Shown here: piece after piece, positions 44,228 through 57,444 of the stretch
Numbering within the stretch: position 1 is the stretch's first letter
How the letters are laid out: the number at the start of each line of letters is the position of its first letter
Origin: Parachlamydiales bacterium
GTDB taxonomy: Bacteria; Chlamydiota; Chlamydiia; Chlamydiales; SM23-39
Direction: 5' to 3'
Assembly (NCBI GenBank): GCA_050302075.1
Contig: JBNLAH010000004.1
Coordinates: forward strand, 180,700 to 244,699
Length of the DNA stretch: 64,000 bases
Notes under the pieces: model-generated
Database searches by the model: none
What the model saw: the letters and a program-made list of their open reading frames with translations, nothing else
Told to the model about the DNA's origin: nothing
Program-made: the position numbers and the translations under genes

Positions 44228-45607
44228 CTAGAACTTGATTTTATCAACTTCTATTGTAAACCCTACGTATCCAATAGGCTCTTTATTATATTTTTTTATG
44301 GTTGATGCAGAGAGTTGCACCGAAACTCTACTTTGGTCTTTCCTTATATAGGTCCATCTACGGCATTCAGGAATATCCTTTTCTGCCAAAGCTACAAAAA
44401 CTTCAAACCCAGGTTTTATTTCTTTTTTTAAAATTGATGAAAGCTCTTCAGCCCTTAAAGTAATTTCCTCGGAATCGTGAAAGATAACTGGAGTTTTCTT
44501 ATCAATAACTTCTCCAGATCTATAACCTAAGAGCTTTTCAGCGGCTGAGTTAAAGTATATAATCAAACCATTTAAATCAGTCGCGATAACTGCATATTGA
44601 GTGCTAGATAAAATCCATTTTTCTAACTCACTATCAAAGTTAACTACACCAGACTTTTTTAAATACTTAAAATATAAAAATAATCCAAAAGACGAGATTA
44701 TTAATACCAAAAACAGAAAAAGTAACACCCCATAGGCTGAAACATTGCTACTAACATCCGCCGTAGACTTAAAAATAAAAGTCCATGTTGTCCCTGCAAA
44801 GTCAAAAATTTTTGTAGTAGAAAGTGAGCTTTCTTTTAAGGTCGCAGTTCTTTTTTGAAAGACCAAATTTTCCAGAGTAGGCTGATCCCCAGCATATACA
44901 TCAATATCAATGTCAGAAGTAAAAACCCCTTTCTCCGTTTGCTCTATAATTGTTGCAAAGTCAATTGAGGCTGCGACCCATCCAAAAATCTCTTTATTGT
45001 CACCTTTAATAATTGGCTCAAAAAGGATTCTCTCTGATTTTACTGATTTTGTGGAAGTTACATCGATAAAAGATGAGGTACTTAAACTTCTAGAATTAAT
45101 GCTTTTCTTTAACGCCTCTGATTGGGCTTTCATTGTATTGAAATCATAGCCAATCAAATCTTCAAAATATTTTGGACTAATATAAACTATCGGATAATAA
45201 AAAGGGTCATTGCTTTCTGGCCAGATCTTAAAATCTTTTATTTGTTTATCTTTGATTGATTGGACAAAGTTAGATTTATCTGATTCTGGTAGATTTTTTA
45301 TAAATGCAATCCAAGTGATCCCTGGAAATTTTTCTGGTAGCTTTAAATTTAATACATAAGGCTTCCACTCATCAAAAGTAATAAAATCAGACGCCTTAAA
45401 AAAGCCATCCAAACCATCTAGTACTACCCGATTTCGTTCATAGCGCTCTTTTAAAGAAAATAAAAATGATTCTGTTTGATTGAAAAATTGATTTTTTACT
45501 AGCGAATTTCTAGTTAAAGCCATTTGTCGAAACATAAGCCAAGCTATTATAGTTGCAAAAATGACATACAATGTTAGAACTAAATAAACACGCTTTTTCA
45601 AGATCAC
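44228..45607 (-). CDS. CHASE-domain/PAS membrane sensor without output domain
   Basis: TM, CHASE motifs (FPGI, YYPIVYISP, IGYD), second TM, then PAS/PAC (IATDLNGLIIYFNSAAEKLLGY, WTYIRKD), then stop. Confidence 0.85.
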   Translation of the reverse strand: MILKKRVYLVLTLYVIFATIIAWLMFRQMALTRNSLVKNQFFNQTESFLFSLKERYERNRVVLDGLDGFFKASDFITFDEWKPYVLNLKLPEKFPGITWIAFIKNLPESDKSNFVQSIKDKQIKDFKIWPESNDPFYYPIVYISPKYFEDLIGYDFNTMKAQSEALKKSINSRSLSTSSFIDVTSTKSVKSERILFEPIIKGDNKEIFGWVAASIDFATIIEQTEKGVFTSDIDIDVYAGDQPTLENLVFQKRTATLKESSLSTTKIFDFAGTTWTFIFKSTADVSSNVSAYGVLLFLFLVLIISSFGLFLYFKYLKKSGVVNFDSELEKWILSSTQYAVIATDLNGLIIYFNSAAEKLLGYRSGEVIDKKTPVIFHDSEEITLRAEELSSILKKEIKPGFEVFVALAEKDIPECRRWTYIRKDQSRVSVQLSASTIKKYNKEPIGYVGFTIEVDKIKF

Positions 45608-45990
45608 TCCAACAATATTTTAGCCATTTTCTCTCTCAATTCCGCAAGATCGATAGGCTTACTAATCAATCCATTCATTCCAGATTCCAAAATAGCTTCC
45701 TTATCCTCAGAAGCAGCTGTAAAGGCTAAAATAGGTGTATTCTTATTACCTTTTTCTATTGACCTGATTTCTTTAGTAACTTGCATTCCATCTTTATCAG
45801 GTAAACGTAAATCCATAAGGATTAAATCATAACTTTGTTTAGATGCCTTCTCTATCGCTTCTTTACCATCTTTCGCAAAATCAACATTGCATTGCATTTG
45901 AGTTAGAATATCGCTCATTAACTCCCTATTTATCGAATCATCGTCCACAACTAAAATTTTTTTACCCTGAAAACAAGTTTTCCAGTCCAT
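45604..45990 (-). CDS. Stand-alone response regulator receiver
   Basis: VVDDD, LMDLRLPDKDG, FTA, SKP. Confidence 0.93.
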   Translation of the reverse strand: MDWKTCFQGKKILVVDDDSINRELMSDILTQMQCNVDFAKDGKEAIEKASKQSYDLILMDLRLPDKDGMQVTKEIRSIEKGNKNTPILAFTAASEDKEAILESGMNGLISKPIDLAELREKMAKILLE

Positions 45991-56374: not shown

Positions 56375-57444
56375 TAGACTCTACAATAAAAAAAATTATT
56401 CTACTAGAATATGGTCTTCTATTTTTACTCTCAATATCGGCCGCATTCTTTACATTCTTTTTTCAATTAAAGTACAGAAGGAAAGCCTTTAAAGCTAAGA
56501 CCTTGAAAGTTATTTTATCTCAACTTATTTCTCAGCGGGTCTTTGGTGAAGGTTTATTGATCCCAAATAAAATACGAGATTTTGAGTCTGTTATAAAAAT
56601 ACTACAAGAATTTGATCAAATGTTTAGCGATTCTTTTTGGACCAGCTTTAAAAGATGGATAATTTATGATGTTTTTTATGAGGATTTCGTATCTCACATA
56701 AATTCGAGAAAATGGGACATGCAAATCTTAGCAATTAGGGCTTTAAACATGTCTTTTGATCCTGTATACGAAAACTATGCCTTTAAATTTCTAAAAAGTG
56801 AAACGATTTTACTCCAACTTGCTATAGTAAACTATGCAGTTAACATTAAAAATAGTGAGCTGATCTACGCCTGTATAAAATACATGTCTAAAATATCTCC
56901 ATCAACGATCGAATTGTTTTTTAGAGATTCATTTTTTACCTCATCAAATCAAACTTTTCAGCTATTGCTTAATATTTACAAAAGAGCAGAAGAAAATGAA
57001 AGAATAATATGCTTAAAAATCTTATCTGAACGAACAGGCTTTTTAACTTTTAATTTATTAAAAAATGATTTGAGTAGTAGTAATTTTCCCTTAAAATGGT
57101 GGGCTTTTAATGCTTTAAAGAATATTCCCACTCCTGAGTCTTTAGACTTTCTCGAAAAAAATTTAGATGATCCAAACTGGCAAATAAGATTTACTTCATT
57201 TTTAGCTATATTTAATACCAAAGTTGAGAAAAGAGCTTCTATTTTAGAAAAAGGCTTATTAGATAGTCACTTTGCCGTCAGATTAATTTCTGGATGGGGA
57301 TTAAAAAAGCTTGGAGAAGTAGGTAAAAGCATCTTGATCAACCAAAAACAGCAAGAAGCTAAAATGATAGGTCAATACATGCTATTATCCAACTACCTGA
57401 CATTTGATAAATTAATGGAACGATATGTTAAATCAAATCTCTGA
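56371..57444 (+). CDS. Membrane-anchored HEAT repeat protein
   Basis: N-terminal TM; LDDPNWQIR and LLDSHFAVRL..GWGLKKLG HEAT-like repeats; ATGA overlap with the upstream gene. Confidence 0.8.
   Translation: MIDSTIKKIILLEYGLLFLLSISAAFFTFFFQLKYRRKAFKAKTLKVILSQLISQRVFGEGLLIPNKIRDFESVIKILQEFDQMFSDSFWTSFKRWIIYDVFYEDFVSHINSRKWDMQILAIRALNMSFDPVYENYAFKFLKSETILLQLAIVNYAVNIKNSELIYACIKYMSKISPSTIELFFRDSFFTSSNQTFQLLLNIYKRAEENERIICLKILSERTGFLTFNLLKNDLSSSNFPLKWWAFNALKNIPTPESLDFLEKNLDDPNWQIRFTSFLAIFNTKVEKRASILEKGLLDSHFAVRLISGWGLKKLGEVGKSILINQKQQEAKMIGQYMLLSNYLTFDKLMERYVKSNL

Follow-up and report, generated by a model that had tools for sequence, protein, structure and literature searches.

The well-studied synthase-dependent polymers (cellulose, alginate, Pel and poly-N-acetylglucosamine, PNAG) are switched by cyclic diguanylate (c-di-GMP), according to the available part of PMC8461298. 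PgaCD depends on YdeH and binds c-di-GMP although no binding domain can be recognised in it (PMC8461298). DivL has Tyr in place of the phospho-accepting His and senses a phosphorylated receiver (PMC5361649, available part). The locus described here lies at 44228-57444 of a 64,000-nt window, the whole stretch of DNA analysed (contig C4, 180700-244699, of genome G000; 1.84 Mb, 33.5% GC, 96% complete), and encodes a membrane glycosyltransferase of family 2 (GT2), a TPR/beta-barrel protein, a membrane HEAT protein and a set of two-component proteins with receiver (REC) domains. Chlamydiae are obligate intracellular bacteria, and Chlamydiaceae have few two-component genes. The locus is very probably some kind of synthase-dependent polymer system. 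The reading preferred here, considered slightly more probable than improbable, is an exopolysaccharide machine of an undescribed receiver-HEAT-GT2 family, switched by a phosphorelay through the HEAT protein.

The GT2 has the motifs D93, D167-x-D169, E273-D274 and Q316-R-T-R-W320. All the processive motifs (D,D,D,QxxRW) named in the initial annotation are present, and seven positions (D93, D167, D169, D274, Q316, R317, W320) are invariant in 99/99 aligned family members. The modelled GT2 fold spans the whole 454-aa protein (pTM 0.93). It matches PcManGT first (Z 32.6) and hyaluronan synthases next (Z 26.7-30.4), ahead of BcsA and chitin synthases. Profile comparison to hyaluronan synthase gives E 7.5e-5, and a PDB sequence search finds distant GT2s only. 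Because its scores fall far under the PgaC and CelA cut-offs, the GT2 is placed, on sequence, in a family separate from both. The 652-aa protein, annotated as TPR plus beta-barrel, models accordingly in a test set beforehand: AlphaFold2 (7-row alignment, mean pLDDT 84.6) gives TPR helices followed by 16 beta-strands at residues 326-651. The gene probably begins at ATG 50994 (649 aa), 2 bases after the GT2 stop. The C-terminal Phe is invariant in 7/7 homologues. Full-length TPR+barrel matches in Foldseek are E. coli BcsC; the top rows of VIA-align are BcsC (Z 22.1), PgaA (4y25, Z 21.8, rmsd 3.0, 272 aligned), BcsC, PelBC (Z 21.4) and BcsC, tied within 1 Z, with general porins lower at Z 17-18. 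The barrel region finds 3 homologous proteins only. YaiO-type proteins align by hhalign in the TPR part and the first strands only, and PF19413 (YaiO) is neither among the 25 Pfam rows listed, out of 32, nor in the precomputed domain list of the barrel protein. The Chlam_OMP6 profile has no match anywhere, control genomes included, and is without information. The TPR/16-strand protein is a predicted polymer export channel. Together, the motifs, the hyaluronan synthase-like fold and a TPR/barrel fold like that of exopolysaccharide porins bear out the synthase-dependent architecture proposed at the outset.

Relatives of the locus were found with an alignment as query (79 loci, the best 80 of at least 457 confirmed stretches); a single GT2 query found none. 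GT2s above 200 bits on the chlamydial GT2 profile are taken as the family (59 loci), and 20 loci are weaker. A HEAT-family gene is upstream of or fused to 56/59 family GT2s from other phyla, vs 1/20 weaker GT2s; the HEAT profile was iterated on the same loci, which inflates its E-values but leaves the difference from the out-group intact. The three family GT2s without HEAT comprise two at contig edges and one long fusion, and the sole weaker GT2 with HEAT is a frameshifted member. A receiver gene lies no more than 1.5 kb upstream of HEAT in 30/59 non-chlamydial family loci and anywhere in the stretch in 38/59. The core of receiver, membrane HEAT protein and GT2 is not specific to chlamydiae: haloarchaea have it too, as do members of 11 other named bacterial phyla. 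Fourteen plasmid records match, including three of haloarchaea, all three REC-HEAT-GT2; the one haloarchaeal receiver translated has the Asp. Diderm members often have TPR-YaiO barrels, some with a sulfatase-family gene; monoderm and archaeal members are without a barrel. With the HEAT protein, the ESM Atlas returns generic HEAT clusters only, with recognition below threshold. In Legionella adelaidensis (L160:1901-8288) the order is dehydrogenase-epimerase-YaiO barrel-HEAT-GT2-epimerase, without a receiver; the accessory pair is the same as in 7 chlamydial loci.

Within the phylum the synthase is patchy: present in 9/41 relatives (own genome counted) and in 29/260 genomes (G045 unscored), in one family 0/56. 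A single branch (SH-aLRT 98) sets all 40 chlamydial GT2s apart in a quick, midpoint-rooted tree. The 39 other chlamydial loci contain HEAT (32), REC (28), barrel (26), Hpt (24) and kinase domain (15), several loci ending at contig edges and the profiles being partly built from those loci. REC is directly before HEAT in 24/32 chlamydial HEAT loci and HEAT directly before GT2 in 21/32; where HEAT is parted from GT2 (11 loci), REC-HEAT adjacency survives in 8. Co-occurrence of signalling genes with HEAT/GT2 in other genomes, the second test set beforehand, is thus seen both inside and outside the phylum. When a profile of 31 HEAT-adjacent receivers is compared with a control of 39 other receivers, the former is preferred by 7-20 bits in 7/7 chlamydial HEAT-adjacent receivers tested (RECc, the terminal receiver of the 783-aa protein, and six counterparts); for the eight stand-alone receivers that gave real scores, the control scores higher. 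The window GT2 belongs to a six-member clade (support 97) with G219, G181, G104, G192 and G231, whose loci all carry an orthologous membrane pseudo-kinase beside the Hpt-REC and HEAT genes; four of the five have the divergent layout of the window. The minimal form, with Hpt, REC, HEAT and GT2 as separate small genes, occurs in G003, G012, G025 and G099. The locus had been taken for a complete sensing-to-polymer module. Linkage of HEAT, GT2, barrel and receiver stands, but the CHASE-PAS/REC/kinase trio is, on its distribution, an accessory input: it is partial or fused in G142 and G099, and complete beside the barrel in G003 only.

In the preferred reading the GT2 would polymerise a UDP-sugar, most likely UDP-N-acetylglucosamine (UDP-GlcNAc) or a derivative, through its small membrane domain, and the TPR/16-strand barrel would carry the chain over the periplasm and outer membrane. 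The membrane-anchored cytoplasmic HEAT protein would be an obligatory partner of the synthase, in the place that PgaD has in PgaCD. Kinase H509, D60 of the split receiver, Hpt H172 and RECa D301 are the parts of a four-step relay, along which phosphate would presumably be transferred in this order. The synthase may be gated through contact between the HEAT solenoid and the terminal receiver of the 783-aa protein. For the dead membrane kinase a DivL-like role is proposed, as a non-catalytic sensor or as a binder of a phosphorylated receiver. That receiver, HEAT protein and GT2 bind one another is suggested by gene order. Several points weigh against this reading. Genome G000 encodes one intact cyclase, as one of nine positive genomes. 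The kinase trio is complete in only 1/39 other chlamydial loci, which makes the named phospho-donor uncertain. REC is absent from the fetched stretch in 21/59 non-chlamydial loci, several of which end at contig edges. Draft assemblies make up most of the genomes, and related genomes do not count as independent. The acidic pair of RECc is lost in 5/5 subclade relatives and Glu occupies its phospho-site in 4/18 homologues, which rules out simple phosphorylation of RECc as a switch common to all members. Since RECa is intact where the RECc pair is lost, the phospho-switch of the window subtype is more likely RECa, with RECc as a docking module.

The rival that survives best is the same machine gated by c-di-GMP at the GT2-HEAT interface, as in PgaCD, supplied by a DgcZ-like cyclase encoded on contig C11 and only tuned by receivers; it is considered unlikely. 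PgaCD itself sets the precedent, by binding without a known domain and depending on YdeH, and an interface site of the PgaCD type would be invisible in the sequence. The only Pfam GGDEF protein of G000 is an intact CZB-GGDEF cyclase, at 253.7 bits on NF007380 (YdeH/DgcZ) vs a cut-off of 256, and it directly follows a second, receiver-less HEAT-GT2 pair (C11, L011:844-4694), together with a 2H phosphoesterase; the same gene order occurs in G004 (L016), there with a barrel. All receiver-less chlamydial HEAT-GT2 loci (5/5, one at a contig edge) are in genomes with an intact cyclase. Intact cyclases are also encoded in 4/59 non-chlamydial loci, one as Hpt-REC-GGDEF-REC with RxxD before HEAT. However, the GT2 of C11 is 39.5% identical to that of the window and belongs to another clade, so that c-di-GMP gating suits the C11 copy better. 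By hand tally, 22/27 chlamydial genomes with a REC+HEAT+GT2 locus lack an intact cyclase, as do all 5 other members of the window GT2 subclade; single-contig G192, with the layout of the window, has no GGDEF match at all. Haloarchaeal cassettes are REC-HEAT-GT2, and archaea, to our knowledge, as a rule lack c-di-GMP; the GGDEF profile matched no archaeal control genome. In total, 25 of the 34 synthase-bearing genomes are without an intact cyclase (12 without any GGDEF match) and 9 have an intact motif, in a census of mostly draft, related genomes with one weak GGDEF match left uninspected in an already positive genome. The independence of c-di-GMP proposed in the initial annotation is supported at family level, where c-di-GMP is dispensable, and is less secure for the window synthase, as G000 encodes the intact DgcZ-like cyclase. 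As only one TPR-barrel of this kind is found in G000, both synthases may share it.

The GGDEF domain of the 783-aa protein was rightly called dead: active site and RxxD site are both lost. The window protein has no Pfam GGDEF match, whereas two homologues do. Among its 18 chlamydial homologues the GG[DE]EF motif occurs in none and RxxD in 1. The remnant aligns colinearly with a Bacillus protein, an intact Hpt-REC-GGDEF-REC encoded before HEAT-GT2. It is likely what remains of an ancestral cyclase, and its sequence gives no reason to predict that it makes or binds c-di-GMP. A role as PelD-type receptor is rejected on the same RxxD counts. No PilZ, PgaD or deacetylase is found among the nine proteins, as had been noted; neither PilZ nor EAL has a match in the 96% complete genome, and its one PF01522 (deacetylase) match lies on C4 about 215 kb from the locus. 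Separately, L139, L140, L141 and L143 encode proteins of about 320-340 aa with a degenerate GGDEF, three of the four with an RxxD-like site. Their genomes (G181, G219, G231, G154) are without an intact cyclase, and these proteins are apparent receptors without a local ligand source.

A second rival, distinctly unlikely, holds that synthase, HEAT protein and barrel work while the signalling genes are decaying or merely adjacent; the synthase would be constitutive or transcriptionally controlled, and the Hpt-REC protein at most structural. The state of several domains fits such decay. The pseudo-kinase, so called from the start, has N313 for His and has lost its ATP boxes. The 783-aa protein has the domain order first given, Hpt-REC-REC-xGGDEF-REC, corrected by about 120 extra N-terminal residues before Hpt and by a dead RECb, in which N429 replaces the phospho-Asp in the window alone (Asp in 18/18 homologues). 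Its RECc has D715 and K766 with the acidic pocket partly lost, and is the most divergent of the HEAT-adjacent group; the RECc phospho-site is Asp in 14/18 homologues. The kinase trio is seldom linked elsewhere, and a similar cluster without a synthase lies on contig C7 (L012:6648-12469: kinase, REC, kinase, PAS protein, REC, Hpt protein); 7 of the 10 REC matches of G000 fall in this cluster and the signalling set of the window. All ORFs are nevertheless full length with tight stop/start coupling. H172 of the Hpt is retained in 17/18 homologues (L106:15568, an Hpt/dehydrogenase fusion, is left out of all Hpt-REC homologue counts), and a dead kinase with an intact RECa recurs in 5 other genomes of 4 families, which argues for selection rather than recent decay. 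The 5/5 orthologues of the pseudo-kinase look inactive: His is absent in 4 (Tyr, Tyr, Ser, Glu), and ATP boxes are absent in the 1 that retains His. Inactivity thus appears conserved, as in DivL. RECa has D256/D257, D301, T334 and K356 intact, and only Hpt and RECa of the 783-aa protein look fully phospho-competent. In four loci (L123, L127, L128, L130) the terminal receiver has Glu for phospho-Asp, a natural phosphomimic-like change.

On the input side, the 836-aa protein, annotated as a hybrid kinase, is not one in the full sense: its terminal receiver is degenerate, with no REC profile match. The 128-aa receiver encoded next to it abuts the kinase stop, has receivers of BarA-type kinases as best models and a G003 orthologue at 56% identity, and is likely the split-off, working receiver of this kinase. 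The CHASE-PAS protein is a sensor, as first described, but one without an output domain. Its orthologue occurs in the same trio in G003, and in G099 a 900-aa kinase joins parts matching both this protein and the 836-aa kinase; it is likely a co-sensor of the kinase. In G181 and G231, the genes that best match the 131-aa receiver (48631) are close to the barrel gene.

The weakest rival, a GT2 that, instead of polymerising, transfers a single sugar or a few to a carrier lipid or protein while the barrel serves another purpose, is very improbable: its top fold match, PcManGT, acts on lipid-linked glycan, its membrane helices are few, and monoderm and archaeal members lack the barrel, but QxxRW is invariant, hyaluronan synthases hold ranks 2 to 14 over more residues (373-393 vs 331), the barrel gene, with its exopolysaccharide-porin fold, is in 26/39 chlamydial loci and here 2 bases from the GT2 stop, and TPR-YaiO barrels flank diderm members elsewhere.

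The polymer is probably GlcNAc-based. GH18 genes occur in 5/39 chlamydial loci, nucleotide-sugar dehydrogenases in 7/39 (closest to UDP-ManNAc/GlcNAc models but below cut-offs), and the Halosolutus GT2 is followed by glmS and a sugar-phosphate nucleotidyltransferase; such neighbours suggest GlcNAc or a uronic derivative as the sugar. The window itself contains no accessory gene of these kinds (GH18, nucleotide-sugar dehydrogenase, glmS type). The GH18 gene is carried by L123, L127, L128, L130 and L126, with the catalytic motif intact in L123. A wider picture is offered tentatively: a bacterial and archaeal synthase family gated directly by a receiver via a HEAT subunit, with no second messenger, may have been acquired once by environmental chlamydiae and wired to a four-step relay with a DivL-like pseudokinase, making a chitin- or hyaluronan-like GlcNAc coat, with a receiver-less sister clade run by c-di-GMP. 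If true, direct receiver gating would be a new way to switch a processive synthase, and one HEAT scaffold would accept either input. HEAT and receiver partners that stay constant across at least 12 bacterial phyla and haloarchaea suggest that this family follows another logic of control and makes an uncharacterised polymer. A dedicated polymer exporter in about 11% of sampled chlamydial genomes would be an unrecognised surface trait, with possible effects on attachment, on host or phage recognition, or on survival outside the host. Direct tests of the mechanism are within reach, as the minimal three-gene core also occurs in harmless bacteria and archaea that can be cultivated.

The nine contiguous open reading frames (ORFs) and their domains, called with Pfam and NCBIfam profiles, agree with the initial annotation. 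The divergence described there stands between the GT2 side and the pseudo-kinase/Hpt-REC/HEAT side; as the 48631 REC gene is on the plus strand, the locus comprises four transcription units or more. Stop and start codons overlap between the Hpt-REC and HEAT genes.

Table. Genes of the locus; positions are those of the window. TM, transmembrane.
Product	Position	Strand	Basis
TM-CHASE-TM-PAS sensor, 459 aa, without output domain	44228..45607	-	Pfam CHASE E 2e-25, PAS E 2e-10
Single-domain receiver, 128 aa, D60 and K111 intact	45604..45990	-	Pfam E 1e-29; best NCBIfam BarA receiver
Membrane histidine kinase, 836 aa, H509/N/G1/G2 boxes intact; C-terminal receiver degenerate	45991..48501	-	Pfam HisKA+HATPase
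Single-domain receiver, 131 aa, D63/T93/K114 intact; convergent with barrel gene	48631..49026	+	Pfam REC
Signal peptide, TPR array and predicted 16-strand outer-membrane beta-barrel, 649-652 aa	49045..51003	-	Pfam TPR; AlphaFold2
Membrane GT2 synthase, 454 aa, D/DxD/ED/QxxRW, without PilZ	50997..52361	-	Pfam, NCBIfam, motifs, model
Multi-pass membrane pseudo-histidine-kinase (MASE3-like), 519 aa; N313 in place of His, without ATP-binding boxes	52456..54015	+	Pfam MASE3+HisKA
N-terminal extension-Hpt-RECa-RECb-degenerate GGDEF-RECc, 783 aa	54023..56374	+	Pfam Hpt+3 REC
Single N-terminal TM helix and predicted cytoplasmic HEAT solenoid, 357 aa	56371..57444	+	Pfam HEAT_2; hydropathy, basic residues after TM

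No island signal is present at the locus (GC 29-35% vs 33.5% genome-wide). Scans for promoters (47 sites vs 56.6 expected) and terminators (10 vs 6.6 +/- 2.3 expected) give nothing above chance, and no RNA elements are listed at the locus. The genome is likely that of an environmental chlamydia; a chlamydial origin is supported by an Hc1 profile match at E 4e-19, a model that also matched 1/14 control genomes. Directly downstream of the CHASE-PAS gene, a minus-strand gene (42839-44170) encodes a Cytidylyltransferase-like domain fused to DUF6624, with no link to the module in other loci. Three tandem related ORFs of 316, 340 and 341 aa with a common N-terminal region and no Pfam match lie at 38387-41877 (minus strand). 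NUDIX, GNAT, O-methyltransferase and APH-family phosphotransferase genes and a leucine-rich-repeat protein occupy 57564-63961 (minus strand), within which two short overlapping ORFs without matches (61231-62006) are possibly one broken gene.

Of the known systems, PgaABCD/IcaADBC is alike in its small membrane GT2 (best NCBIfam match PgaC_IcaA), second membrane partner and TPR+16-strand porin. Unlike it, the locus has no PgaB or PgaD among its nine proteins, the partner is a 357-aa HEAT solenoid, and receivers, not c-di-GMP, are the usual neighbours. The GT2 reaches 132.3 bits on the PgaC/IcaA equivalog TIGR03937 (cut-off 422.3) and the barrel 33.6 bits on the PgaA equivalog TIGR03939 (cut-off 366.65), in the TPR part only, though its fold matches PgaA; membership in PgaABCD is rejected on these grounds. 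Bcs and Pel share the TPR+barrel exporter fold (BcsC Z 22.1, PelBC Z 21.4). Bcs is unlike in that no PilZ, BcsB or BcsZ match is found, and it is rejected with 53.4 bits on CelA TIGR03030 (cut-off 699.1) and no PilZ in the genome. The Pel system uses a degenerate GGDEF protein, and PelF is a GT4; the degenerate GGDEF of the window is without RxxD. The solved folds nearest to the GT2 model are those of class I hyaluronan synthase and PcManGT (Z 26.7-32.6), at 16-19% identity, and the literature consulted records no HEAT partner for them. NfrAB-YbcH, the phage N4 glycan receptor of E. coli, is alike in joining a GT2 synthase and an outer-membrane partner for a secreted polymer (bioRxiv 2021.10.01.462733, available part). 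The window GT2 has GT2-family Pfam matches only and no MshEN domain, and Nfr membership is rejected. DivL of Caulobacter is alike in a kinase fold where another residue stands for the phospho-His (Tyr in DivL, N313 in the window) and in adjoining receivers (PMC5361649, available part); the MASE3-like membrane input of the window pseudo-kinase differs from the PAS domains of DivL, and the likeness is a working analogy, not orthology. No description of a receiver-HEAT-GT2 cassette was found in the open literature, most subscription papers being outside its coverage. The main text of the operon survey PMC7112194 mentions neither HEAT nor Chlamydia nor response regulators, and its supplements may list such operons; the available parts of PMC12419801, PMC10434189 and PMC3684757 are unrelated to the cassette. 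Contributed here are a census of cyclases, the finding of one chlamydial clade, a subclade with the pseudo-kinase and a hint that inputs of two modes exist. The locus works like PgaABCD or Bcs, yet by their family models and component genes it belongs to neither.

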